Made by a program: the position numbers and the translations under genes. Below the pieces are notes generated by a model. The model did no database searches. It saw nothing but the letters and a program-made list of their open reading frames with translations, and was not told the origin of the DNA. A stretch of 31,325 bases of DNA from a virus (taxonomy: Duplodnaviria > Caudoviricetes): IMG/VR virus record IMGVR_UViG_3300005805_000300, positions 1-31,325 of that record. One strand, 5' to 3'. Positions within the stretch are counted from its first letter, which is position 1. Every line of letters starts with the position of its first letter. Below are positions 9,856 through 30,652 of this stretch, piece after piece.

Positions 9856-10416
9856 TTATCTATCTGGGTTTGGGGGAGACTCAAAAAATGATTTAGGTGA
9901 GTCATCTTTACCTGATGGAGCCTCAATTGGAACCCATGCTCGAGCGTAATTGTGTTCTTTTATTTTTCTGACCTTGATCAAACTGCTGTCAAGCATTAGC
10001 GATAATTCATCTGACTTCATGCATAGAAGGTCATCAAAATCTTGATTGGTATATCTTCCCGACCTTCTCATCTCCCTAATAATTCTTGATAATTTAGCTG
10101 CAACGACTACCGACTTGCCTCTATTGAGCTGTACGTGCATCATCATCGCTTCGATTTTGTCGCAATCGTGAAACACTACCGGGATCATCTCTCCATGTAT
10201 TTCTGATATTTTATCAATTTCCATAAATAGGTTGTATCTCTCGGAGCCATCAATTATTTCCCTCGTCTCCCGACGAACATGAAGTGGCTGTATAAAGCCG
10301 TACTGCATCAATGACGATGAAATAACGAAAAGTTCAGGTCGGAGAGTGTATGTTGACTTCCAGTCGGGGACAACTAATTGCCCTCGCTCAACTAATTCAA
10401 TTTTTATATTTTTCAT
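9856..10416 (-). CDS. ParB/Srx-domain protein, IbrB/YbdM-like
   Basis: SLMQYGFIQPLHV...EIIDGSERY...MMMHVQLNRGKS; translationally coupled to the PAPS-reductase-like gene. Confidence 0.8.
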   Translation of the reverse strand: MKNIKIELVERGQLVVPDWKSTYTLRPELFVISSSLMQYGFIQPLHVRRETREIIDGSERYNLFMEIDKISEIHGEMIPVVFHDCDKIEAMMMHVQLNRGKSVVVAAKLSRIIREMRRSGRYTNQDFDDLLCMKSDELSLMLDSSLIKVRKIKEHNYARAWVPIEAPSGKDDSPKSFFESPPNPDR

Positions 10417-11540
10417 AGTTCTATTTCTCTTTCAAGAATCCTGACAGCATTTGCTTTCGTTTTTGGGCCAACTGGCGTTGGTGAGTTCACATCTATTTCG
10501 TTCAGCATCAAGTTACGTATTAACCAGCTAATTGGGTAACCATAGGGGTCCTGAAGATGTTTTTTTCTAAATTTAGAGACATACACACGGGCTTCCATTT
10601 TTCTTCTATCGCCAACAAGATATTCGTCAATGAATTCAGAGGCGCCATCAAAACCCAGACCAGAATATCTTTCTATTAATTTTTCACTATCGAATTCTGG
10701 CCACCATCTTCGCTGCGCATCTATAAATGGAAAACATTCCCAAAGTCTGTCATAAAATTCAGGTTCAGTAGCTATGACGTCCCCTATGCGTCGAATTGCT
10801 GTTGCGTGAAGCGGTATGCCGACCCTAGTGTTGCTCCCGGTCGACATAGCTAGATCGTAATACTCACAATATTCTGCGTTATGCTCTTCAATGATAAATT
10901 TAAAAACATCATTAGTATTCCAGTCGTAAATTACTTTGGCAAATTTAAGTGGAATTCCAGCTTTTAGTTTGTATGGAGTGTTGATGTAGTTTTCGTGCAA
11001 TTTTTGCACAACAGAACGATATCTAACCATAGATTCACTTGCCCTTACCCCGGTCAAAAAAGCAACGTTCCCCTTTTTCCCTTGCATCGTGTAGTAGTCG
11101 GTTTGTTCTGGAAGTGATGTTTCATGAGATAAACCAAAATCATTTGCATTGATGGCAAATTGAGGCATATCTCTAAGCCACCTTTTTTGCTCTCCCCGCT
11201 GTTGACTCCAAAGAACAGTGGTTAGTCGATATCCAAGAACCCATATTTCTGCCGGGTATGGCAAACAATACCACTCCATATCCACCCAATCATAATTTCT
11301 GACTTTCTCTACATACTCAACAACGCTTGGGCTGACCATTTCTTCATCTCTAAATATTACTTTTACCGGGCCAAGATTTCGTTCTTCGTGAATTTCTTTC
11401 GCAAGATACAAAACTGCTGTTGAGTCTTTACCACCAGAAAATTGAACACAGACGGTATCAAACTGATCGTAGACGTGACGTATTCTTTGACGCGCAGCGT
11501 CAACACACGACATATCCAGAAACAGTCTCTGTCTTGTCAC
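10413..11540 (-). CDS. PAPS-reductase-family (PP-loop) protein, IbrA/YbdN-like
   Basis: PP-loop VQFSGGKDS, plus AARQRIRHVYD, FRDEE, TGVRASESMVRY, IYDWNTNDVF. Confidence 0.88.
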   Translation of the reverse strand: MTRQRLFLDMSCVDAARQRIRHVYDQFDTVCVQFSGGKDSTAVLYLAKEIHEERNLGPVKVIFRDEEMVSPSVVEYVEKVRNYDWVDMEWYCLPYPAEIWVLGYRLTTVLWSQQRGEQKRWLRDMPQFAINANDFGLSHETSLPEQTDYYTMQGKKGNVAFLTGVRASESMVRYRSVVQKLHENYINTPYKLKAGIPLKFAKVIYDWNTNDVFKFIIEEHNAEYCEYYDLAMSTGSNTRVGIPLHATAIRRIGDVIATEPEFYDRLWECFPFIDAQRRWWPEFDSEKLIERYSGLGFDGASEFIDEYLVGDRRKMEARVYVSKFRKKHLQDPYGYPISWLIRNLMLNEIDVNSPTPVGPKTKANAVRILEREIEL

Positions 11541-12364
11541 GGGGTGTGTTCTGAAATAAAAGATATTAATTTTTCCGCAACAGTATCGCCTTCAAGGCCT
11601 GCATCGGAACGTAACCATTTAATAAATGCGTACCATTCGGCTTGCTGTTGGGTGTTGTCAAAGACAATTGTGTACTGAACAACTGCTTGCGGAGCGGAGC
11701 GTGGAGAAACAGTTGTAGACCCCCTTACAACTGCATCATTTTGATCCATTTCTGGACGAATATTTATTCGTTGATTTCCCTCTTTGTCTTTGGTTATAGA
11801 CACCGTATTCATGTCTAGGGAGGTGTTCTTTGGTTTTTCGTCTTCCTCTTCTTCCTCTTCTTCCTCTTCTTCTTGATCTCTAATTATCACCGGGGGAACA
11901 TAGGAGCCAGAACTAACAACTTGATATTCATCTCTTATTGCAGATTGTTCAAGTTCAGCTAATTCAAACTCGTCCCAACCCAAACTGTCTATGAGTTCTG
12001 GATACTCCTCATGGATCTCCATAATAAATTCGCTAAGCATCTCTGGCTCTGTGTATCCAAGCTCCATGGTTCTGTTGTCAGCTATAGCAAACGCAATCGC
12101 TTTCTTGTTGTCTACGTCATAACTTACGGCGGCTATTTTGTCCCAACCAAGCTGCTTTGCCGCTTCAAGTTGATGATTTCCGGCAATAACCGTAGATGTT
12201 CCGTCGTCGTTAGGTCTTACGACTATTGGCTTGATTTGTCCAAACTCCTGATACGAAGCGATGATTGATTGCACATTGCCTTTTCTTGGATTCCCCTCTA
12301 GGGGGACAAGGGTGTTTACATCGACCGCAAGTTGTCTTAGTGATTCATGTATTTTGTCTGTCAT
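11537..12364 (-). CDS. ParB/Srx N-terminal domain protein with poly-Glu linker
   Basis: LVPLEGNPRKG...FGQIKPIVV...VIAGNHQLEAAKQLGW...AIADNRTMELG; internal QEEEEEEEEEEDE tract. Confidence 0.85.
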   Translation of the reverse strand: MTDKIHESLRQLAVDVNTLVPLEGNPRKGNVQSIIASYQEFGQIKPIVVRPNDDGTSTVIAGNHQLEAAKQLGWDKIAAVSYDVDNKKAIAFAIADNRTMELGYTEPEMLSEFIMEIHEEYPELIDSLGWDEFELAELEQSAIRDEYQVVSSGSYVPPVIIRDQEEEEEEEEEEDEKPKNTSLDMNTVSITKDKEGNQRINIRPEMDQNDAVVRGSTTVSPRSAPQAVVQYTIVFDNTQQQAEWYAFIKWLRSDAGLEGDTVAEKLISFISEHTP

Positions 12365-12366
12365 TT

Positions 12367-12702
12367 CTATACCTGCACCCTTACGTTTGCGTTAAGTGTC
12401 CGCATAGCATCTATCGATGTTCGTAGCGACAACAGAAGTTCGCGTTTTGTTTTTACTAAAGCTTCAGCACACTTGTGGTCGAAGTTTTGTTCATCCATTT
12501 TGTAATCGGCCCAAGCTTCTCGTTCTTTTATCGAACCTTTTGCTGATAGGTATTCTCGAGCCCAAGTAGATTTGTATAGCGCTTCTTTTTTTGCTGAGTC
12601 CATAGCTAGCGTTTCAAATTTTTCAGTTTCAATCTCAAGTCGGTCAAGAAGTCTGAGCAACTCTTGTTCTATGTCTACTTGACTAATTGGTGATGTTCTC
12701 AT
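12367..12702 (-). CDS. Helical hypothetical protein (possibly UvsY-like recombination mediator)
   Basis: 111 aa, coiled-coil character, overlaps the RuvC-like gene. Function inferred from size and context only. Confidence 0.45.
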   Translation of the reverse strand: MRTSPISQVDIEQELLRLLDRLEIETEKFETLAMDSAKKEALYKSTWAREYLSAKGSIKEREAWADYKMDEQNFDHKCAEALVKTKRELLLSLRTSIDAMRTLNANVRVQV

Positions 12703-13237
12703 TGTTTGATTCCTTTTTGTTTAGTGGTGTCCAATCTACTTTAGTTAGCGCATCAAGGTTTTGTGTAGGCCAATTATGTCTTTGTTTACCCAAATGAACA
12801 AGTCCCATTTCCTGCAATATCCAGGCGTCACATTTGTCGTCGGCCCCTGGATTGGACCAAATCTTTCCTGTCCTAGCAGATATCGCTGAAAGAACCTCAA
12901 GCTTTGAAGCATTGCCTTTACCCGTTGCAAATTTAGCCCTACATGTTGGTGGAACAATAACGCACGGAACCCCTATTTGCCAAAATAATAGTTTAACTAC
13001 CCCGCCCAATTCACCAATGGAAAAAGCTTGGCCACTACGGGACGCGAATGAGTAGCCCTCAAGAATTACTGCTTTCACATCAAGACTATTAATTAATCTT
13101 TCGATTTCTTGTTTTATTAAAAACAGCCTTTCCAATCCGGTCGCATCAAAAGACACTGTCCCGGTTTGTTCCCCGTACGAATACCCAGTAGAGGTTAACG
13201 AAAGATCGAGACCCAAAACGTCATTTATCACTGACAC
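12683..13237 (-). CDS. ruvC: RuvC-like Holliday junction resolvase
   Basis: VLGLDLSLTSTG, VILEGYS, IGELGGVVK, PPT..KFATGKGNASK, DDKCDA: the RuvC catalytic acidic residues. Confidence 0.88.
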   Translation of the reverse strand: MSVINDVLGLDLSLTSTGYSYGEQTGTVSFDATGLERLFLIKQEIERLINSLDVKAVILEGYSFASRSGQAFSIGELGGVVKLLFWQIGVPCVIVPPTCRAKFATGKGNASKLEVLSAISARTGKIWSNPGADDKCDAWILQEMGLVHLGKQRHNWPTQNLDALTKVDWTPLNKKESNNENITN

Positions 13238-13247
13238 ATACTAACCT

Positions 13248-13288
13248 AAAAGCAAAAACCCACCGAACATCTAGCTAGTCCGGTGGGT
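13248..13288 (-). terminator. Intrinsic terminator
   Basis: 11-bp stem ACCCACCGGAC/GUUCGGUGGGU running into a U-rich tail (UUUUGCUUUU). Confidence 0.8.
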
Positions 13289-13390
13289 GTTATTCAAAGC
13301 AGTGGTGGCTGCAATGAATACTTGCCGTGGTTAAACCACTCGATTCTTGGACCACCGCCTTTCTTCCGTGAAGGGTAGATATGGCTAGAC
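13248..13390 (-). ncRNA. Putative structured small RNA (~140 nt) with an extended complement to the 16S rRNA 3' end
   Basis: TGa-TAATCT -10 at 13405-13397; AGAAAGGCGGTGGTCCA at 13364-13348; internal stems; intrinsic terminator at 13288-13248. Confidence 0.6.
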
Positions 13391-13452
13391 GCAACAAGAT
13401 TATCATTTGAGTTAATAGGCAATAAGTGAAGAGCTTTTAAATAATATTATTT

Positions 13453-13502
13453 AAAAACAAACACGCAAAAGCCGAGTGAGTCCCCTCACCCGACTTTCGC
13501 GC
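13453..13502 (-). terminator. Intrinsic terminator hairpin
   Basis: GCGCGAAAGUCGGGUGAG-GGGA-CUCACUCGGCUUUUGCGU followed by GUUUGUUUUU. Confidence 0.8.
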
Positions 13503-13519
13503 CTATAACGGTCCTAAGT
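13453..13519 (-). ncRNA. Putative ~67-nt small RNA antisense to 23S rRNA helix 69
   Basis: -10 TAATCT at 13531-13526; single-stranded 5' leader ACUUAGGACCGUUAUAG; 18-bp stem with four G-U pairs and a GGGA (GNRA) loop; U-tract. Confidence 0.65.
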
Positions 13520-13577
13520 GCTACCAGATTACACCCGCAATAAATAGTGAAAGTGTTAACTATAAAACTATTAAAAA

Positions 13578-13922
13578 TTATTTTTCCCAACCATGTTTTG
13601 CAAGACCTAAATCAAAAGCGAGTTGTGGGTAATGACCAATCCTTACGTGACACGGCCTGCAGACAGCAAGAACATTTTCTTCATCAATAATTGAACCACC
13701 CTGTGAACGACGAACTATTTCGTGAACATCTCTGCTTAGGTGTTGGTTGTATGTTGCTTTTTTATCATGTGCGGCAAAAATTTTACAGGCCTGGCACATT
13801 GGTCTCTCTTTGAGTATTTTTTCTACGAATTTGCGACGCTCAACATATAGCTCTTCTGTTTTTTTGCTTCGTTTTTTTGGTAAGCCGCTTCGCTTTATTG
13901 GTTTATTTCTTCGAATCATCAC
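13578..13922 (-). CDS. HNH endonuclease
   Basis: CQAC...DVHEIVRRSQGGS...ENVLAVCRPCH: zinc-binding HNH motif with a basic N-terminus. Confidence 0.88.
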   Translation of the reverse strand: MMIRRNKPIKRSGLPKKRSKKTEELYVERRKFVEKILKERPMCQACKIFAAHDKKATYNQHLSRDVHEIVRRSQGGSIIDEENVLAVCRPCHVRIGHYPQLAFDLGLAKHGWEK

Positions 13923-20275: not shown

Positions 20276-23200
20276 ATGTCCACAGAAACATTTGAGTACA
20301 AATCCACGTCCATATCTGGCTCTCAACAAGTCAAGGGCGCAGTAAATTTGGATGAGGCTCAAGGTATTGTCGAATGTTTCGTCGCCGGTATTGGCAACAA
20401 AGACTCGGTTGGCGACGTTTGTGCGCCGGGAGCTTTCACAAAAAGCCTTCTTAGGCGCAAGCCTCGTGTGGTTTGGGGTCACAACTGGAATGACCCAATA
20501 GGTAAGGTCTTAGAAATTTATGAAGTTGGATCGACGGACCCACGCCTACCGCTAAAAATGAAGATGGCAGGAATTGGTGGTCTTTTCGCAAAAGTTCAAT
20601 TTAACTTAAATTCTGAAAAAGGCAAAGAAGCATTTGCTAATGTTGCCTTCTTTGGCGAAGAGCAAGAGTGGTCAATTGGCTATAAAACACTTAGAGCTCA
20701 ATTTGACCAGAAATCTCAAGCAAATATTCTTTATGAGGTTGAGTTGTACGAGGTAAGCCCTGTGCTTCACGGAGCAAACCAGCTCACCGGAACAATTTCG
20801 GTAAAAGCCGATGACTCCGCGTATGGTGGCGCTGTTGCATTGATGCCCGAAAGTGAGGACGATAACGGATTTGAGGAAATGGAAAAAGAATTGAGCAGAC
20901 TGCTCAACGCTAAGGTTTCCATAAATGCAATAGAGGGAGACAGCGTAATATTTACCCGACAGGAAGCTGTCGGCGCCAAGAAATATCGATGTGGATTCAT
21001 GAAGAACCACGGAAGATATATGTTCGGAATACCAGAAATGATTTCCACCCCGCAGAGTATGCGACCTATGTCTCCGATGCCGGTTGTATCAGGAAGACCG
21101 ATGCCGCCAAATGAGCCGCAGAGAATTGTAAGACCACAACAAATGCCCTCAATTCCTGTTGCCGTAAAACCAAGCAGCGACGGCGTAATGATGATTCCTC
21201 TTCCAGCGATTCGCTACGATTCTTCATCTAAACCACAAATAGATAAAAATAATCTCGATCAAGAAGAATCAGATTTGCGCGATGCGCTTTTAAAAATCGT
21301 AAAACGTCATGGAAAACTAGATGAAGATGGAGACGGAATCTGGGCGGGCTACTATCCACCAGAAAAAAATCCAGTCGCGTCAATCGGAGTTAAGTGCGCC
21401 AATTGTGTTTTCTATAAAGGCGGTTCTAGTTGTAAAATTCTTGCGCTCCCCGTGCACCCGGAAGGGAAATGCAGATTTGCGGTAATCCCAAACGGCGTTG
21501 TTGTTGGCAGCAGCTCCAAGGAGCTCGAAGACCTCGCAAGCGAAGCAGAGGACTCGATTATCGAAACACTTGAAATGAAATATCCAGGAGAATTTATTCT
21601 TGGTGTACTGAGAAACACTGTCGGTAGAAGAAAAAAGAGAAGACAGAAGTACAAGAATCTTTCCGAGTTCGGCGACGCAGATGACACCGGTGAAAAGGCC
21701 TACCTAATACCGGTAGAGCCAGATTTTGCGTTCAGTGTAAAGACAGCGCTGGATCCTATATTTGATTATCACAGAGCAGAAACATTTGTTGACAAAGAGG
21801 GCATAGTGATATCTTCCGGAGTGACGGAAGAATTGATTGATGCACTCGATACCGCCTTCCACAACATAAAAAAAAAATTCCAAGAACATAATGTAGAAGT
21901 CAAAGCGCTTGGTTACAGAATCGGTCGCTCACTTGCTTCAAGGGCGATAGATAGACCAAATATCGGCGGGAAAAAACGTGGTCGTGGATTTGGTATGCCG
22001 GAAGGCGACCTCAACCCAATGACCAGAGTTGACAAAAACAGAGATGGAACACTGTTTGACAACATACCAGGATGGGAACAACCAGACCCGACACCGGATG
22101 GACCTGGTTCAATCAATAACGCAAAACTTTCTTCTACTCAAAAAAGAGACATTGACAAAATTTCTGGAGAAGCTAATAAGATAAAACCACAAGACAGCGA
22201 AATAATAAAAAGTCGCAAACCAAAGTACGACGTCAACGAACTGGACGACATTCTTGGGGAAGATAAAAAGAAGCCATCTAAAAAACCTGTAGCAAAAGCA
22301 ACTCCGATTAAAAAAGAAAAAGCCAAACGCGGCGAGTACGACTTCTCTAAGGGTCCTAAAAAAGATAAGCCAATCAAAACCCCATCTCTCGCATCAGGTG
22401 AAGAAAAAGACAAGAAACCAAAGACTCCTTCGCGCAAGAAACCAAAGATGACCGATGAGGAAATCTACAAAAAAAGAATAACGACGAAGGCATCACTTCA
22501 GGAGCTAGCCGATGAGCTCGGCATCTCAAGAATGGAAGTGAGAAAGCGCGAACAGCGCCACATGCGCAAGTTGCGCAATGATAAACAAAGTCCTTCTCTT
22601 TCGTCTGGCGAAAAGAATGAGTGGGCGACGGCGCGTGGTTACGAACCAGACAGATTTGATCTCCGCGAGGCCGTAGAACAAATAGGTAGAGGGAACATAA
22701 TGGCCATTTCTGGTGGTCGTGTTGAAAGAAGAGGGAATGAAATGATTCTCCCTTCGACAAAAGACCAACAAGTCGTAATCGGATACAACGCAGTTCCTGA
22801 CCTTTACTACGTTCGAGCGGAACAAAAAGTTAATACTGGCAAAAACAAGGGTAAGAATAAAATTCTTGCTCAATGGGACGACGTCTATGCCGACGAGTTG
22901 GGTGAACTTGCGTATCAAGCAAGCCTAAAGCCGGCATTGTTAAACAGCGAAAACAAAGAGTATTGGAAGCTTGGAAAAGGCAATCAATTCACTGACAAAC
23001 TTATTGATAGGAGAAGCGGAAAACTCGTAGATGACGAAGTTTCAGAAAAACCTTCTTCTACTCCCTCAAAAGAAGAAACCCCATCTCTTTCTTCTGGTGG
23101 GAGAGGACGTGATTACTACAAATACGACATAGATACGAGCGACAACGGGAACGGCCTGCTTGATCAAATTCATGACGCTCTTGAAGAAAACCCACTACTC

Positions 23201-26200
23201 AAAGATGACATTACGGCCGACATAGCGGACATGCTTGGTGGAGACGGAATAGTTGAAGCAAATGGATTCGATACACGAAAAGCATTCAATCTCGTAACCG
23301 GAAGTGATGATGATTTCCAGGGCTACTTAGACGTCGTTGACGATGCAATGGATGCACTTAAAAATGGTTCACTTGCAAAGCATAAAGCGACGGTTCGTGA
23401 CGCCAATACAACTCTTGATTCGCTCAAATCCGGAAGCGATGAAGCCGGAAAACTTGAAGCATTGAGAGACAGGTCGTATGAGTGGATTGGTGATATTAAT
23501 AAATATTCACGAATATCCACAATTAAAGATAAAAAGAACATCGAAGCAAATGATGTTGCAGCACGGATGGTTTCAAAAGAGCAAGACGCTCTCTGGAATG
23601 CTCGTTCCGCTATAACAGAAAAATACATAGAAGATGTCATCTCTGCAAAGAAAGAATCAAAGCGAAGGGTTCCAATTGATGATGTGGATACAGAAAAAAT
23701 TCCAGATTACGAATTAGCTCTTTCTTCTGGAAGCGTATTTAAAAACAAGCCAGCATCAAAAACATTAGATAGCAAATCGGATGGATTATCTCTCTCGTCT
23801 GGGGAAAATAAAAAAATCTATGACGAAATAGGTAAATCAATTCTCGAGGCACTTATCGAGATGCAAAAAAATCCACAATCCAGATACTGGGATGTTCCGT
23901 GGAGAACCCCTACTCTTTATGCAAAAAACCCAACAAAGGGTCGCTTATATCAGGGCATGAATGCATTGCTTCTCGCAAACTCTCATAGACAAAATCAATA
24001 CAGAGGAAATTTTTGGGCTGGAAAATCTCAGTGGGCAAAATTTGGCGGAACTGTAGAAGATGGAAAGAGCGGAGTAAATATTCTCGTTCCAAGAGAGACC
24101 CCAACTGGCAAAACTTTCATTGTACAAACTGTCTACAACCTGGACGACATTGAAGGCTTGCCAGATTCTTACGTCAAAAAATTATTAGATGTGGGCAAAG
24201 AGCGTCTTGACCCAGCAACCAAAATCAAAGACGCAGAGTCTGTCGTTGACGAAATTAAACCAGAGATTAGGTTCGGTGGAGATTCTGCGTATTACTCAAT
24301 CACGAATGATCACATTCAGATGCCCCCATACGAAATGTTTAAATCCCCTGAGCAATATTACTCAACACTTTTGCACGAGCTAACGCACTGGACTGGCGGA
24401 AAATCCCGTCTTGCAAGAAAGCAAGTAGGTCTACAAAAAGACGAAGAAGCATATTCATTTGAGGAATTAATTGCCGAAATGGGTTCGTCATTCCTTCTTG
24501 CAGCACTTGGTATCACGCCAGAAGTAAGACAAGACCACGTTGTTTATATTGAAAGTTGGATTTCAAATCTCACAAAGGACCCAAGTGCATTTATTAGGGC
24601 AATGAACCAAGCACAACAAGCTGCTGATTGGGTTATGGACAGATCACCCACATTGAGAAGACTTGCCGGCGTACCAGATAGCGAAAGAAAAGGCAAACCT
24701 GATGCAACCAAGGAAGTTGCGGAAGCCGCAACCGAATCTGTTGATGCAGTAAAAGATTCGACTCCATCTCTATCTTCTGGTGCACAAGTCGGTGTACGGA
24801 AAGTAAAAGAGCTTCAATACTTTGGCGACGAAGATCAATATGGCTCTGGAGTTGTTGATAGAGATTCACGGGGACGTATTCTTGATGCGGCTGGCGCTCT
24901 TTCTCTTTCTAGCGGCGCGAAACCGATTAAAAGTGTAGATGGGAAAATAACAGTACCAAGACCTAGCGACAATGTTCCATACAGAGAAAAATACAAATTT
25001 CTCGCTAATGAATTTGAACCAACAGAGCAACAAAAAGCATCAATGGATGTACTGCAACACATGCTCAAAGAAAAGATAAATGGCATCATCGCTATTGGTG
25101 CTGGGGCTGGTTCGGGCAAAACAACAAACTTAAAGCAAAATGCGCGTGCCGTTGCCGCAATTTTCCCTGGCAAACAAATTTACTATACCGTATTCAATAG
25201 GGGAAATGCTAAAGACGGTAACCGAGTAATGCCAAGGAATACCGGCGTAGCAACAAGCAATCAAATTGCATACTGGTCGCTAGTTCTTGGAACCGGTGAC
25301 AAATTTTACGGAACAGGCACTGCAAAAAAAATACAACTTGGAGTCGGACCGAGGGAAAAAGTATATCTACGGGGTGCAAAGAAAAATACGGTAAAAGAAT
25401 ATACAGATTTTGAAGGGAACAAGCTTCAATTTACAGGTGTAATACCCGGATATACAGATTTGGGTTATACGAGCTACGATTCGGAACCAAATATCATAGA
25501 AAGACTTGAGAAGCTTGGGCTTCTTAGTGACGCCGACGAGCTTCTCGGCGCTGATTATTCTCTTGCAGAAATGTTGAAGAAGGCTCTTATGAGATTTGCA
25601 GAGAGCGAAGACCCCAAATTGTCCGCGAAACATTTTTTATTGCGCGATGTGGAAATGATCTCGGCCTTACTGGATGGCAAACCAGTACCTACTGAAGAAA
25701 CGATACCTAAAGAAGTTGTAGAAATCGCTCAAAAGTTATGGGATGAGACGGTAGACCCGAACAGCAATGTTTTAATTCCTCAGGAATATCAAATAAAAAT
25801 GTGGGCCCTCACCAAGCCAGACCTAAGAACAGATAAGGGACTTATTGGACATAGACCAAACGAAACAATTTTTGACAGAATAAAACTTGGTACGGTCGAA
25901 GATTTAGATTCCGGGAAAATCAAAATTGGAAACATAATTGAATTTACCGTGCCAGAAACCGGCGAAAAAGTTGCCGCAGTTATCCGCAAACTTAATCCGC
26001 CATCACAAAAAGAAACAAAAAAAGGCGAGCTGACCGGAAAAAGACAAGTAACTGGTTCTGTTTCTATTGTTTCAGTAACTGCCAACAATCCGCTAGAAGT
26101 GTTTATGTTTGATGAAGCTCAAGACGTGAACCCAGTTATGGCAAAAGTGCTAGCTGATAACGCTGCGAATTTACCAATCATAATGGTCGGTGATTCGCGT

Positions 26201-29200
26201 CAAGCCATTTACGGATTTAGAGGGGCCATGGACGCCCTAGATAAAGCAAATGCGACATTTAGGCTCCCCTTAACACGTTCATTTAGGTATGGAAGGCTAC
26301 CGGCATACCTAGCGAATGTTGTGTTGATGCAAGGAAATATTGATGACTTAAATTTCCATAGGGAAAATGAGACTTTAGACAGACACACATTTCATCACGT
26401 AGTTGGCGAAGCTCAAAATGTTGTAATCAATGCACTGAAAATTACTGGTCCAGATGGTAAAAAACTACTCCCCAAGGAAGAACTCGACAAAAAACTCAAA
26501 TTTATAGAAGTGAAATACAAACTCAAGGGACGCGCAGTCAGCTTTGATGGGAAAAGTGAAAAAGAAATAAAAGAACTTGTTGACAAGCTATATGAAGAGC
26601 ACGTTCCTAAAGCGAATGGTCAAATCGTGGAAAACATGACCAATCCTCAAGCCGTCTTAACATCAACAAATGCTGGCGTAATGGAAGAGGCTCTCAATGT
26701 AGTTGAAGGGGGAATACTTAAGCATCAAATTGCATATCTCGACCTTCTTGGTATTGAGGACATAACAGACGAAATAGAATTAGCTAATAGATTGAAAAAA
26801 ATTTCTGAAATATACACATTGGACGGACTTGAAATAAATCTTCTTGATATCGCGGCAAACGACGGAAAAGATGCGATGCTAAAAACCATCAATGAATTAA
26901 GAGAGGAGCACGCTCCTGGTGGTGCTGATGGAAAAATTCCAGCTATAGGAATCCCGGCTGACACTCACGAAAAACTCTATGACTTCTACAATCAACTAGA
27001 TTGGATTATGGGGGATCTTGATAACAAATTTGGCGTTCAGGGGCGGCCAAAAGCATCGAAATTATTGAAAGATGTCTGGAGATTCGACAAAAAGAAAAAT
27101 AGATATCCAACAAAAGAGGAAATGGTCAGGAAAATAGAGAGAATGGTTCAAGGCGGATCACAGGAGCTTAAAACCTGGTATAGGCTTGCGTACCCTCCAA
27201 TCGGAAAAGGCATACCAAGAGGGGCAAGATTCTTTAAAGATTTACTAAGACCAAACGGACAGGTATATAAAGACCTGAACGGGAATGAACAAAGATATCA
27301 GGGACTAAGGCCAATGCGCGAGGGGATTGAGCTCCCCAACATGGAGTCCGGTAAGGACCACATTACGGCAGATCTTATAAAGGAAACAGCGAAAGAACCA
27401 TTAGGCGAAAGCAAGTCTGGAAGACGCAGAAAAATTTCATGGATAATACCCAAGAAAGATGAAGGTGATTCGTCTGGTGAGGTATTCGTAAAACTAGAAC
27501 TTGACGAAAATGGCAAGTCAACCGGAGGCGTGATTATTGCGGGGAATGGCGCTCATGGTGGAAAGTATAAGTTTAGAAAATGGAATAACAAGAAAAAAGA
27601 ATGGGACCCGATACAAAGCGGGCAGCCCGACAAGAAGGGGTTCGATTACTACGAAGACTTAGCAAAGGTTGCGAAAAAACTGAAAGCTGAATACCCAGAC
27701 GCGGTAATTGAATTTAAGCAGGGCCTCGTAAAACAGGACGGCAAAGCTTTAACATTCCCCCCAGACACCCCCGATGATTTTAAGCCAAAACTAAATCCGA
27801 AAACAGGAAATCCTGACTCCTCCGTCGAAAGAGCATCCTTGCCTGGGTGGGTCGTGAGGGGGAGGAACCCGGAAGAGACCGCACTTATTGCCAACGAATT
27901 TGGTAACAGGGTCAGAAAATTAGCGGCCGAAGGAAATACCGACGTTGACGTTATGACTGTTCATATTGCTAAAGGTAGAGAATGGAAGAGAGTAAGGCTT
28001 TCTGACGACTTCCGAGACCCAGAATCCCTGGTCCCAACTCTCCCACCGGAAGTTTTAGAAAACCTTAAACCAAAAGAGAGACTCCGGGTTCTCAGAGAAC
28101 TCGAGATGATGAAACGAGAAGAGCACAACAAGGTTTATATAGCAATAACTAGAGCACAGGAGCAAATTGATCTTGGTGTTGCTATAACAAAATATTACTT
28201 CTTAGATGAGATACCCAATACTGCTTTAACTGCTGATATCCAAGAGATCAGGAAGAGGATAGAAGATCTAGATAAAGAAATAAGCAAACTCCAAAAAAAA
28301 CCCAACAGCGATACAGATCCAGCAATCAAAAAAGAAATAAATAGACTCAAAAAAGAAAAAATCGAACAGAATAAAATCCTTAATACGTCTCGAGATATGC
28401 TTCAAGCTCAAAAAGTTACTGCAGCTAAAGCAAAAATTGTCGAGAACCCAGACGGCATATACGACGACCTTCAGGCCCCAGAAGGCTTCATTACCCCTTA
28501 TTTGGCCGATACGGAAGAGGCCAGAGCAAAACGCAAAAAGCGTCAAGAAGAATTAGATCAGTCGGTTAAGAGGTACTTTGAGTCACAGCGTCAAAAAGAA
28601 AAACAACAAGCAACCCCGGATGACGATGATGAAGCGATGGTCGAAGACGACTCCGGCGGGCTTGATACTGGTGAGCCAAACTTTGTAGACATATCTGGAC
28701 CAGAAGATGACAGTGGAATAAGTAGCGATGATCAAGACGACGACGGAGACGTTCAATCGCTATCTCTTTCGTCTGGAGCTAAAAAGAAAACAAACAGAAG
28801 AAATAGACGCCTCCCCTACAGTCAACAAGATAGACAGAATCTCGCTGATGGAAATATTATCCGTTCGAAAAAAATTCCTAAAAAACGCAAACCAGGACCA
28901 TCAACTCAAGAATTTGATGATTTAGCGCTTGCTTCCGGAGCGAAAACACCAGAGGGGAGATACGCAAGAAGACTGCGAGCAATAAGCCTCTCTAGCGGAA
29001 GTGATGATATTGGTGCAGGAGCAAAAACTCGACAAATTAACGGCAAGAGATTTGCTGCAACAATTTCTAGGCCTCGAGATCTTGCCGCCATAAGAGTGGA
29101 TGGTGACCCAAACAAAAATGACGAAGTGAAAAACAAACTCGAATATGCAATGAAATTTTGGCGTGGAGTGCGTGAACGCGGCATCGCCCTGGATCCGGAC

Positions 29201-30652
29201 GATGTCTCAGCCGAAAGAAAAGACGTTGAAATCAAAAATTCAATCTCTTCTATTTCAAAAAGAATGTCCACGAGACCAAAAGTTAAAATTGGTAAAGTTT
29301 CATCTAATCAAATAAAAGATGACGTCAACCCTGATGAGTGGTTCGTTCCTGTTTCTAAATTAAAAGACTCGATAAGAATACCAACAGAATTTTCCAATAT
29401 TCCGGCCGACCCCGACTCTCCGGACGGTAGAAAAATTGCTCGCTGGACGCAGACACGCCCACTTTCCAATGACGAACTAGGGAAAATGCTTGCCCTAAGC
29501 AAGACAGACATAAAAAAATTATCTGATGATGATTCTGGCATCACTCACGACTCTGTTCGATTTCTGTTGGCTGAAATAGGTAAACAGAAAGGATTTGAAG
29601 CTTGGAGACTATTTGCTCCGACCTCTTTGAAAGAAGAAGGCGTACAAGAAATGTCGCCCGCAGATAAATTTGTCGCAAATCTAGAAAGAGCCAACATGCG
29701 TGACAGATTCATAATCGAAGCATTTGGCAAAGATGCCTTCCCCTACTGGATAGATAAGGAAGAAAATACTGTTATTGGTCAGAAAGAATATTCAACCCTT
29801 GGCGAAGTCAGTGAAATGGGCAAATTTAGGTCCACTGGAATATTCAGCAAAAAACGCGGAGCATCAGAATTCGGCTCAACCGCCGAAGAAATGCTCCTTG
29901 AGGAAGCGGTGTTTGGCGGCGATGATGGTCCGGGCGACTTCGTGAAGGAAGCAATTATAAATTCCGTATCAGCACCATCAGGTAAAACATCTAGAGAACA
30001 ATTTGATATCAGCCAACTTCTTCAGGCATTAAAAATAAACGAATCAGAAGACTGGTATAAGGAGTTGCGTAAAAGAATGATGAAGGCATTTTCCACAGAC
30101 GATGTTGGTCTTACATCCAAGGAAGTGGCCCGACAGTGGGAGGCCGGTGGGGTTCCTACGACATACATTAATGAAATGATCAGAACAGGCTTGATTCCTG
30201 ATGCTAAATCGGTTTGGAAAAAAGATGGTGTCGGGGAAAAACTAGACAGCGAATTGGCTGCTTCAAAGCACTCTGTCTACGAAGCCCTTTTTGAGTTTAC
30301 GCAAGCAAAACACGCCGCAGATAAAGCCAAAAACACTAGACGAAACAGAGATTACATTCTTGGTTCTACCGATTTTACTGTCTCGCATAAAGGGGTGGCC
30401 GCCAGGAAGGGGGCAACATTCTCAAAGAAAACCGGAGATGAAAGAAGATTTAGCCAAAGCGAACTACAGGATGTTGTAAATCGTTTTAATGAAATATTTG
30501 GAACCAATTACAAAATAGACGACATTTTCAGTGCAGAGCAATTACGCAACGCAACAAAAAGGCTCCGCGAAGAAGGTAAAACCCTATACGGCGAAGAACC
30601 TTTAGAGCTGGGTCAACGAGTTGTTCTTAAGAAAGATAAGAATAATAAATAA
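20276..30652 (+). CDS. 3458-aa polyvalent protein: HK97-type prohead protease + HiPIP-like Cys motif + sigma4-like HTH + ArdC-N/MPTase + UvrD-like SF1 helicase + unknown domains
   Basis: Protease: KDSVGDVCAPGAF, VWGHNW, WSIGY, LYEVSPVLHGAN. ArdC: NPTKGRLYQGMNALLL, LLHELTHWTG, YSFEELIAEMGS. Helicase: AGAGSGKTT, DEAQD, VGDSRQAIYGFRGA, LTRSFRYG, TVHIAKGREW, VYIAITRA. Confidence 0.92.
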   Translation: MSTETFEYKSTSISGSQQVKGAVNLDEAQGIVECFVAGIGNKDSVGDVCAPGAFTKSLLRRKPRVVWGHNWNDPIGKVLEIYEVGSTDPRLPLKMKMAGIGGLFAKVQFNLNSEKGKEAFANVAFFGEEQEWSIGYKTLRAQFDQKSQANILYEVELYEVSPVLHGANQLTGTISVKADDSAYGGAVALMPESEDDNGFEEMEKELSRLLNAKVSINAIEGDSVIFTRQEAVGAKKYRCGFMKNHGRYMFGIPEMISTPQSMRPMSPMPVVSGRPMPPNEPQRIVRPQQMPSIPVAVKPSSDGVMMIPLPAIRYDSSSKPQIDKNNLDQEESDLRDALLKIVKRHGKLDEDGDGIWAGYYPPEKNPVASIGVKCANCVFYKGGSSCKILALPVHPEGKCRFAVIPNGVVVGSSSKELEDLASEAEDSIIETLEMKYPGEFILGVLRNTVGRRKKRRQKYKNLSEFGDADDTGEKAYLIPVEPDFAFSVKTALDPIFDYHRAETFVDKEGIVISSGVTEELIDALDTAFHNIKKKFQEHNVEVKALGYRIGRSLASRAIDRPNIGGKKRGRGFGMPEGDLNPMTRVDKNRDGTLFDNIPGWEQPDPTPDGPGSINNAKLSSTQKRDIDKISGEANKIKPQDSEIIKSRKPKYDVNELDDILGEDKKKPSKKPVAKATPIKKEKAKRGEYDFSKGPKKDKPIKTPSLASGEEKDKKPKTPSRKKPKMTDEEIYKKRITTKASLQELADELGISRMEVRKREQRHMRKLRNDKQSPSLSSGEKNEWATARGYEPDRFDLREAVEQIGRGNIMAISGGRVERRGNEMILPSTKDQQVVIGYNAVPDLYYVRAEQKVNTGKNKGKNKILAQWDDVYADELGELAYQASLKPALLNSENKEYWKLGKGNQFTDKLIDRRSGKLVDDEVSEKPSSTPSKEETPSLSSGGRGRDYYKYDIDTSDNGNGLLDQIHDALEENPLLKDDITADIADMLGGDGIVEANGFDTRKAFNLVTGSDDDFQGYLDVVDDAMDALKNGSLAKHKATVRDANTTLDSLKSGSDEAGKLEALRDRSYEWIGDINKYSRISTIKDKKNIEANDVAARMVSKEQDALWNARSAITEKYIEDVISAKKESKRRVPIDDVDTEKIPDYELALSSGSVFKNKPASKTLDSKSDGLSLSSGENKKIYDEIGKSILEALIEMQKNPQSRYWDVPWRTPTLYAKNPTKGRLYQGMNALLLANSHRQNQYRGNFWAGKSQWAKFGGTVEDGKSGVNILVPRETPTGKTFIVQTVYNLDDIEGLPDSYVKKLLDVGKERLDPATKIKDAESVVDEIKPEIRFGGDSAYYSITNDHIQMPPYEMFKSPEQYYSTLLHELTHWTGGKSRLARKQVGLQKDEEAYSFEELIAEMGSSFLLAALGITPEVRQDHVVYIESWISNLTKDPSAFIRAMNQAQQAADWVMDRSPTLRRLAGVPDSERKGKPDATKEVAEAATESVDAVKDSTPSLSSGAQVGVRKVKELQYFGDEDQYGSGVVDRDSRGRILDAAGALSLSSGAKPIKSVDGKITVPRPSDNVPYREKYKFLANEFEPTEQQKASMDVLQHMLKEKINGIIAIGAGAGSGKTTNLKQNARAVAAIFPGKQIYYTVFNRGNAKDGNRVMPRNTGVATSNQIAYWSLVLGTGDKFYGTGTAKKIQLGVGPREKVYLRGAKKNTVKEYTDFEGNKLQFTGVIPGYTDLGYTSYDSEPNIIERLEKLGLLSDADELLGADYSLAEMLKKALMRFAESEDPKLSAKHFLLRDVEMISALLDGKPVPTEETIPKEVVEIAQKLWDETVDPNSNVLIPQEYQIKMWALTKPDLRTDKGLIGHRPNETIFDRIKLGTVEDLDSGKIKIGNIIEFTVPETGEKVAAVIRKLNPPSQKETKKGELTGKRQVTGSVSIVSVTANNPLEVFMFDEAQDVNPVMAKVLADNAANLPIIMVGDSRQAIYGFRGAMDALDKANATFRLPLTRSFRYGRLPAYLANVVLMQGNIDDLNFHRENETLDRHTFHHVVGEAQNVVINALKITGPDGKKLLPKEELDKKLKFIEVKYKLKGRAVSFDGKSEKEIKELVDKLYEEHVPKANGQIVENMTNPQAVLTSTNAGVMEEALNVVEGGILKHQIAYLDLLGIEDITDEIELANRLKKISEIYTLDGLEINLLDIAANDGKDAMLKTINELREEHAPGGADGKIPAIGIPADTHEKLYDFYNQLDWIMGDLDNKFGVQGRPKASKLLKDVWRFDKKKNRYPTKEEMVRKIERMVQGGSQELKTWYRLAYPPIGKGIPRGARFFKDLLRPNGQVYKDLNGNEQRYQGLRPMREGIELPNMESGKDHITADLIKETAKEPLGESKSGRRRKISWIIPKKDEGDSSGEVFVKLELDENGKSTGGVIIAGNGAHGGKYKFRKWNNKKKEWDPIQSGQPDKKGFDYYEDLAKVAKKLKAEYPDAVIEFKQGLVKQDGKALTFPPDTPDDFKPKLNPKTGNPDSSVERASLPGWVVRGRNPEETALIANEFGNRVRKLAAEGNTDVDVMTVHIAKGREWKRVRLSDDFRDPESLVPTLPPEVLENLKPKERLRVLRELEMMKREEHNKVYIAITRAQEQIDLGVAITKYYFLDEIPNTALTADIQEIRKRIEDLDKEISKLQKKPNSDTDPAIKKEINRLKKEKIEQNKILNTSRDMLQAQKVTAAKAKIVENPDGIYDDLQAPEGFITPYLADTEEARAKRKKRQEELDQSVKRYFESQRQKEKQQATPDDDDEAMVEDDSGGLDTGEPNFVDISGPEDDSGISSDDQDDDGDVQSLSLSSGAKKKTNRRNRRLPYSQQDRQNLADGNIIRSKKIPKKRKPGPSTQEFDDLALASGAKTPEGRYARRLRAISLSSGSDDIGAGAKTRQINGKRFAATISRPRDLAAIRVDGDPNKNDEVKNKLEYAMKFWRGVRERGIALDPDDVSAERKDVEIKNSISSISKRMSTRPKVKIGKVSSNQIKDDVNPDEWFVPVSKLKDSIRIPTEFSNIPADPDSPDGRKIARWTQTRPLSNDELGKMLALSKTDIKKLSDDDSGITHDSVRFLLAEIGKQKGFEAWRLFAPTSLKEEGVQEMSPADKFVANLERANMRDRFIIEAFGKDAFPYWIDKEENTVIGQKEYSTLGEVSEMGKFRSTGIFSKKRGASEFGSTAEEMLLEEAVFGGDDGPGDFVKEAIINSVSAPSGKTSREQFDISQLLQALKINESEDWYKELRKRMMKAFSTDDVGLTSKEVARQWEAGGVPTTYINEMIRTGLIPDAKSVWKKDGVGEKLDSELAASKHSVYEALFEFTQAKHAADKAKNTRRNRDYILGSTDFTVSHKGVAARKGATFSKKTGDERRFSQSELQDVVNRFNEIFGTNYKIDDIFSAEQLRNATKRLREEGKTLYGEEPLELGQRVVLKKDKNNK
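22382..28999 (+). repeat. Ten dispersed peptide-level repeats [PLI][SA]L[SA]SG
   Basis: Copies start at 22382, 22592, 23081, 23714, 23786, 24764, 24899, 28760, 28922 and 28982, with varied synonymous codons. Confidence 0.9.

Follow-up and report, generated by a model that had tools for sequence, protein, structure and literature searches.

Bacterial small RNAs of the RybB and OmrA/B type have their own promoter, a conserved unpaired 5' seed, and an intrinsic terminator, and are about 70 nt long. Other antisense RNAs, such as RNA I/RNA II and CopA/CopT, present loops and are encoded opposite their own target. In archaea and eukaryotes, the box C/D, H/ACA, U3, and U8 RNAs form long perfect pairings with conserved rRNA, possibly during assembly. 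Phages are known to control ribosomes via proteins. To our knowledge, the base-pairing RNAs of bacteria and phages act on mRNAs or on other small RNAs.

The helix 69 region of 23S rRNA matures late in 50S assembly. Helix 69 forms intersubunit bridge B2a and its tip is exposed when the subunits part; the A1919G mutation leads to decay of both ribosomal subunits, and deletion of helix 69 leads to no decay (PMC4289901). Several mutations in the helix 69 loop inhibit translation or 70S formation (PMC1190176), and a PNA against helix 69 inhibits the growth of E. coli (PMC7038079). Two further papers treat helix 69 and the 16S tail as nuclease targets and describe no RNA of the kind reported here (PMC13189344, PMC7913689). 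Full-text literature searches, whose coverage excludes most subscription papers, found no phage RNA antisense to rRNA. The available text of two motif catalogues (PMC5737381, PMC10690425) makes no mention of one, and there is no 12-mer match in six supplement files of PMC10690425, which were the only supplements within the scope of the search. An earlier reading of the DNA studied here, made from its letters alone (the sequence-only reading), had stated that it knew of no described example. The literature searched, as far as its text was available, and the lack of an Rfam family are in agreement with this.

The window, which is the whole stretch of DNA that was analysed, comprises 31,325 nt of the IMG/VR virus record IMGVR_UViG_3300005805_000300. 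It is part of a tailed-phage genome and encodes a terminase, a portal, and a prohead protease domain, as identified by a protein domain scan. The closest cultured terminases are ~42% identical and belong to Methanobacterium and Gordonia phages. The 16S-tail fit and the gene content, and these alone, suggest an actinobacterial host. A 3458-aa protein is encoded at 20276-30652 (plus strand); its domains are those of a prohead protease, sigma-70 region 4, an ArdC N-terminus, a zincin, and a UvrD helicase. At 9856-12364 on the minus strand, ParB-like and PAPS-reductase-domain genes follow one another in a row that resembles a phage DNA-modification cluster. Two putative small RNAs and their neighbours lie on the minus strand as follows.

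13578..13922, minus strand: small HNH endonuclease gene (PHROG HNH families, best E 1.2e-10), the upstream neighbour of the anti-23S RNA.
13526..13531, minus strand: predicted -10 box TAATCT of the anti-23S RNA (TANNNT at fixed spacing in relatives).
13503..13518, minus strand: 16-nt segment antisense to 23S rRNA 1914-1929 (helix 69 loop, its 3' strand, and the junction after it), the predicted free 5' leader.
13463..13502, minus strand: terminator-like hairpin of 18 bp with a GGGA loop and four G-U pairs (from the fold and covariation).
13453..13462, minus strand: interrupted U-tract (13461-13453), the predicted 3' end (T-run in relatives).
13397..13402, minus strand: predicted -10 box TAATCT of the second RNA (from the sequence; TANNNT in the same place in relatives by eye, uncounted).
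13248..13390, minus strand: second predicted RNA of ~140 nt, with internal hairpins and its own terminator at 13288-13248.
13364-13349, minus strand: segment antisense to the 16S 3' tail (predicted duplex of -26.9 kcal/mol with the natural tail ending CCUUUCU).
12683..13237, minus strand: RuvC-like resolvase gene (phrog_159, E 1.1e-33), the downstream neighbour.

The plus-strand 16-mer at 13503-13518 had been read as a conserved 23S segment, and it is identical to 1914-1929 of an annotated 23S gene from E. coli. No other exact match of the window to either rRNA is as long, the runners-up being 13-mers. The minus-strand layout is also as had been read: TAATCT, 7 nt (6 nt and A13519), the 16-mer, the 18-bp stem, and a U-tract, here found to be interrupted. 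The antisense strand had been proposed as the structured one, and the fold z-score is -4.41 for the minus strand vs. -2.30 for the plus strand. The predicted start is at about A13519, which would give an RNA of ~67 nt. No consensus -35 at normal spacing was found upstream of TAATCT (13531-13526), and the promoter scan does not have this -10 box among its predictions because it requires a -35. In type A, the form of the element that the window carries, a TTAACA/TTGACA-like hexamer (13558-13553 of the window, minus strand) is found repeatedly 21-22 nt upstream of the -10 box. It is too distant for a normal -35 and might bind an activator or serve as a divergent promoter of the small gene that precedes type A on the opposite strand in L013, L016, and L153.

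In the single-sequence fold of the window's RNA, the 16-mer has a mean unpaired probability of 0.64. The 16-bp duplex with 23S rRNA is predicted at -26.6 kcal/mol vs. -6.4 kcal/mol for isolated helix 69, figures in which tertiary contacts are not counted. The window's own base facing G1930 is an A, a mismatch. Within the window, the 16-mer has a single other target site, with 3 mismatches. The six bases after the -10 box (13525-13520, minus strand) equal 23S 1929-1934 in the sense direction; they are not conserved in the alignment of relatives, and the match is therefore probably due to chance. An Rfam search had been proposed for the element, and no family was found for it: the Rfam 15 covariance models gave 0 matches in the window at E up to 1, and matches in 20 loci were only to rRNA (L301) and tRNAs.

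Type A was aligned from 26 sequences, namely the window and relatives from RuvC-anchored loci. Conservation is 96% for the 16-mer, which is unpaired in the consensus fold, compared with 75% and 81% for the stem arms and 49% for the tail. In nine of the 15 consensus pairs of the hairpin, both partners vary. None of 500 shuffles attained the covariation score of 0.50, a result that is not a probability because the sequences are related, and slid controls scored at most 0.16. The sequence-only reading had named an invariant 16-mer beside a covarying stem as what relatives should have, and a kept hairpin without the 16-mer as what would speak against it. The alignment has the former. A plain intrinsic terminator with a free flank can be rejected, as the leader is better conserved than the stem.

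The -10 box is conserved in the same alignment (T 96%, A 96%, and last T 92%), and TANNNT stands 7 nt upstream of the 16-mer in 56 of 63 type-A contexts. With this spacing, the predicted start of the RNA coincides with the seed or lies immediately upstream of it. Downstream of the hairpin, 55 of 64 type-A contexts have a T-run, and the others have a weak one or none. Opposite G1930, the 64 contexts have C in 43 cases, U in 16, and A in 5 (C or U in 59). At the level of sequence, the -10 box, the covarying hairpin, and the T-run support the stand-alone RNA unit that had been predicted on the minus strand.

The match alone had been considered weak evidence, and it is: shuffled regions scored up to 17.0 antisense vs. 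16.0 for the window. A single match is weak, yet the recurrence of the exact 16-mer across at least 207 viral loci makes the observation a real one. These comprise 87 loci without a following G and at least 120 with it, the total of the latter being estimated at ~120. One of the 207, L301, is real rRNA and not a phage element, and L040 and L082 look like chance matches. A universal 16S 16-mer (1491-1506), used as a control, was found in 3 viral loci, none of which has a hairpin. Twelve dinucleotide variants of the 16-mer gave ~150 stretches, with the same layout in 30 of 120 among the matches listed. The 90 of these 120 listed matches that lack the hairpin put the background at an estimated ~9 per 16-mer, and the exact 16-mer is about 20-fold above it.

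The 207 loci reduce to 116 distinct contexts and, after L079, L262, and L284 were dropped, to 113 with both flanks. Of the 113, 105 have a hairpin of -15 kcal/mol or stronger 3' of the antisense reading, 14 have one 5' of that reading, and 11 have one downstream (3') of the sense-strand reading. Over the same 60 nt, the antisense strand folds better in 95 contexts, worse in 13, and equally in 5. The claim that helix 69 is the matched sequence also holds in regions that were selected by RuvC and not by the motif. Of the 71 distinct regions of this kind, the window included, the best antisense match to the whole 23S overlaps 1905-1955 in 41, as against 2 for the opposite strand.

A scan of 185,579 cellular genomes, restricted to the subset without a following G (the commoner C-form lay outside it), gave 30 matches. 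None has the layout by eye, and most are one coding motif, rRNA variants, or chance. Three cellular matches, L325, L346, and L353, have an extended match and no clear terminator. The element was found in no record of the cultured-phage collection: one search gave 4 short matches, none above 28% of the query, and a further search gave 14 rRNA records and 6 short matches inside coding genes.

Other types of the element were found in other phages. In type B, the anti-loop is folded into a small hairpin, and all 8 contexts carry the segment anti-1932-1937 in the terminator loop. Type B follows nrdA, for which the closest cultured relatives are 58% identical (Flavobacterium phages). The anti-1932-1937 segment is also in the terminator loop in type D (7 of 7 contexts). 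In type C, it lies directly 5' in 10 of 10 contexts and the pairing extends to ~1941. Type E follows a structural or major head gene, and its anti-loop is in a hairpin loop on a stem that covaries by eye. The head, nrdA, and flanking genes differ among the types, as do the scaffolds. The common feature is therefore the 23S complement, not the scaffold or the neighbour. The split, single-stranded display of the complement fits RNA-RNA pairing and not a DNA site. In C and C2 elements of L010, L014, and L017, pairing lies on both sides of C1942, while C1942 itself is unpaired in 3 of 3 by eye; this may reflect their own 5' hairpin.

Several one-off layouts were also observed. In the same slot, L115 (~2890-2900) carries, by eye, an 11-nt complement of 23S 1941-1951 followed by a hairpin, and L123 (~2920-2945) has its target shifted to 23S 1923-1947. 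In L018 (position 1502, antisense to 1910-1929) and L325, the antisense segment adjoins tRNA genes and there is no strong terminator. L204, L209, L229, L269, L272, L420, and L044 have 17-25 nt of exact complementarity in phages unlike those of types A-E, and L420 has ~27 pairs including one G-U. All guides seen aim at 23S 1910-1947, the sequence through which most loci were found. No other recurring 23S target was found among the RuvC-anchored loci.

The elements were also compared with the helix 69 alleles of possible hosts. Metagenome 23S sequences with a non-G at 1922 carried C1921/A1922 in 113 of 114 matches (2 of 64 parts scanned), and all 44 readable 16S tails among those matches end in CCUUUCUA. 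Arthrobacter crystallopoietes carries this allele. A better fit to C1921/A1922 (-34.3 vs. -30.9 kcal/mol) is seen for the elements of L125, L127, L604-L606, and L609, of which L604, like L602, duplicates a contig of the pair L125 and L127. The elements of L116 and L121 share the promoter and terminator of the L125 kind and fit the common allele (-30.2 vs. -23.5 kcal/mol). L125, L127, L117, and L121 form one supported RuvC clade (99/94). Sister elements appear to track two natural helix 69 alleles, in one event. Three of the 8 matches to the allele-type element (L603, L607, and L608) look like chance, and the exact 16-mer for C1921/A1922 gave 11 matches, none with the element layout by eye. Some variants count against strict pairing throughout. 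These are a U-to-C change opposite A1916 (L114, L149, L150, L170-L175, and L179), the type-E2 dinucleotides AA, TA, and TT, for which there is no matching allele among the 114 sampled (2 of 64 parts), and shortened seeds of only 11-12 pairs (L126 and L140-L144). Internal mismatches are present in L116/L117/L121 and L125/L127.

The second predicted RNA has a fold z of -2.64. Of 80 RuvC loci, 43 have its anti-16S motif upstream of the gene. Within the 420 nt before RuvC, a limit beyond which elements would be missed, both RNAs are present in 31 of the 80 loci, anti-23S alone in 16, anti-16S alone in 12, and neither in 21. The order of the two is reversed in L114, L126, L140-L142, and L149, and a 66-row RuvC tree requires 18 changes among the five presence/order states. 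The second RNA is independent of the anti-23S RNA, and the anti-23S cassette is autonomous, having its own -10 box and occurring alone or paired and in either order. In 23 of 34 contexts there is no ATG or GTG within 14 nt after the SD-like segment; 15 of these contexts are unrelated coding or chance matches. The terminator loop of the second RNA is complementary to its own 5' end (CUAGC/GCUAG in the window and CCAGC/GCUGG in L107 and L108, by eye and uncounted), which suggests a long-range pseudoknot. Both this neighbouring RNA and the spread of the anti-23S element over several unrelated phage types go beyond the first reading.

The HNH gene is a neighbour and not a required part of the RNA unit. 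In 36 HNH-anchored loci, the 16-mer is present at up to 2 mismatches in 15, and some of the others are incomplete at their ends. HNH and RuvC are two separate small genes in the window. The RuvC-like gene probably has a leaderless start, with TAGTAT at 13243-13238 and GTG at 13231. Among the start contexts of 22 window genes, 9 have an SD-like motif and 4, RuvC included, have a -10 box 5-7 nt before the start.

It is very probable that the role of the element is to pair with helix 69 of 23S rRNA. To what is observed, namely the complementarity, its conservation, the strand, the autonomy of the cassette, and the spread across unrelated phage types, a mechanism can be added in which each step is conditional. 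The phage unit would be transcribed into the ~67-nt RNA, which would base-pair in trans with helix 69 of a free or still-maturing 50S subunit. Entry would be through the free 5' end, or in other types through a loop-loop contact. Helix 69 would be unzipped, bridge B2a broken, and no 70S formed with the 30S subunit. There is an even chance, in our estimate, that free or immature 50S subunits are kept from joining 30S subunits in this manner. The neighbouring anti-16S-tail RNA would block Shine-Dalgarno pairing on the 30S subunit. The likely gain would be a throttling of host translation and ribosome production, and stalled subunits could possibly decay and serve as a nucleotide source. This salvage step is weakened by the lack of decay after helix 69 deletion, as described in PMC4289901. 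A phage needs ribosomes and a full block would be harmful to it, so the model requires a partial or timed effect. More broadly, it is more likely than not that small RNAs of this kind arose repeatedly in large aquatic phages, whose hosts span more than one phylum. Such RNAs would pair with working surfaces of the ribosome (helix 69-70 and, here, also the 16S tail), track the host rRNA allele, and serve as natural antisense antibiotics that switch off or remodel the subunits in the course of infection.

Instead of inhibiting, both RNAs might shield exposed rRNA by covering it reversibly against single-strand RNases of the host or toxins that cut ribosomes to stop infection. MazF-mt3 cuts the 16S anti-SD and 23S helix/loop 70, the same two regions, in an actinobacterium (PMC5408214, PMC6101614). 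The anti-16S RNA covers the UCCUU of the tail, and coverage of 23S reaches 1941 in type C and spans 1923-1947 in L123. However, the window type ends at 1929-1930, ~10 nt short of the UUCCU of loop 70 (1939-1943). Duplexes of ~-27 kcal/mol on working surfaces should block function themselves, and types B and E belong to other phage lineages. A shield is considered unlikely.

It is quite unlikely that the RNAs re-tune ribosomes, shifting them from Shine-Dalgarno-led host mRNAs to leaderless phage mRNAs without disabling them. The anti-16S-tail RNA in the same slot and the 4 of 22 window genes that look leaderless would fit, as would the commonness of leaderless mRNAs in Actinobacteria (PMC6101614). 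SD-like motifs are nevertheless present in the 9 window genes noted above, and the anti-16S motif was not found in the available flanks of any of 44 representative non-A elements. Leaderless initiation uses intact 70S ribosomes (PMC6101614), which a helix 69 block should reduce.

The element could also act in cis, as a 3'-UTR tag that tethers or recycles 50S subunits at the end of a highly expressed phage mRNA. The 16-mer does come soon after the stop codon in E1 (1 nt), D (8-39 nt), and B (22-30 nt), behind head/structural genes and nrdA. Types A, C, and C2 are mostly 50 to >1000 nt from any upstream stop. Type A also has its own -10 box, an opposite-strand gene upstream in the three loci named above, and a swapped order with the second RNA. 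A cis role seems very unlikely.

A guide RNA is very unlikely; its 16-nt 5' guide and 3' scaffold would bring HNH, RuvC, or a host enzyme to rRNA or rDNA that is to be cut or modified. The layout of guide then hairpin does sit between HNH and RuvC genes, but the nucleases occur without the RNA and the RNA without the nucleases (types B-E), no change of target was seen among loci that were mostly found through that target, the scaffold varies by type, and there is no Rfam match. A DNA-level site (a homing-endonuclease decoy or an attachment site) or a common terminator that matches by chance is largely refuted and barely credible: the plus strand equals part of the I-CeuI site, which the sequence-only reading had named without this limit, but the window match ends at G1929 and only half is present, the second half is relocated to a loop in types B and D, no integrase is among the window ORFs scanned, and the strand asymmetry, the changes that keep G-U pairs, and the excess over background all argue against it.

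Pairing of a phage RNA with helix 69 can be set beside the known systems. Like RybB and OmrA/B, the anti-23S RNA has a predicted promoter, an unpaired seed, a terminator, and a similar length. Unlike them, it is phage-encoded, has a perfect 16-nt seed, and would target rRNA and not mRNA; in comparisons that covered rRNA and the window's own sequence, the best target, 23S 1905-1955 in 41 of 71 regions, is not the mRNA expected of a trans-acting sRNA. The anti-helix-69 loop of types B and E is presented by a hairpin, suited to a loop-loop start as in RNA I/RNA II and CopA/CopT, although the element is encoded in another genome than its target and the window type is a linear leader. A long perfect complement to conserved rRNA is shared with box C/D, H/ACA, U3, and U8 RNAs, whereas this element is from a bacterial virus, has no partner protein linked to it, and would have an inhibitory role. 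A box C/D or H/ACA guide was rejected, with no Rfam snoRNA match, no such motif conserved in the type-A alignment, and no partner among 15 window proteins scanned. An IscB/HEARO or Cas9-like guide was likewise rejected, as the RNA is found away from the nucleases and they away from it, HNH and RuvC are each encoded by a small gene of their own, and the scaffolds differ. So was an I-CeuI-type homing site, which is continuous and double-stranded on both sides of the cut: types B and D have the remainder in a loop apart from the 16-mer.

The two target regions are those of the PNAs to helix 69 and the 16S mRNA-binding site, both of which inhibit growth or translation; those are synthetic, and the phage RNAs would be their natural counterpart (PMC7038079). 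As with MazF-mt3 and MazF-mt6, the 16S anti-SD and 23S domain IV by helix 69 are addressed, but those are protein nucleases that cut loop 70, while the phage RNAs would pair and the window type stops short there (PMC5408214). The target of the window's RNA is identical in E. coli and the RNA is predicted at only ~67 nt, so the idea is directly testable. If true, pairing of a natural RNA with bridge B2a would represent a new way for a phage to take over its host, and the natural designs (free leader, kissing loop, and split loop) could be compared as evolved templates to probe 50S assembly and subunit joining. A phage RNA against helix 69 appears to be of a new kind, in which the seed-plus-terminator design of sRNAs is used without an mRNA target.
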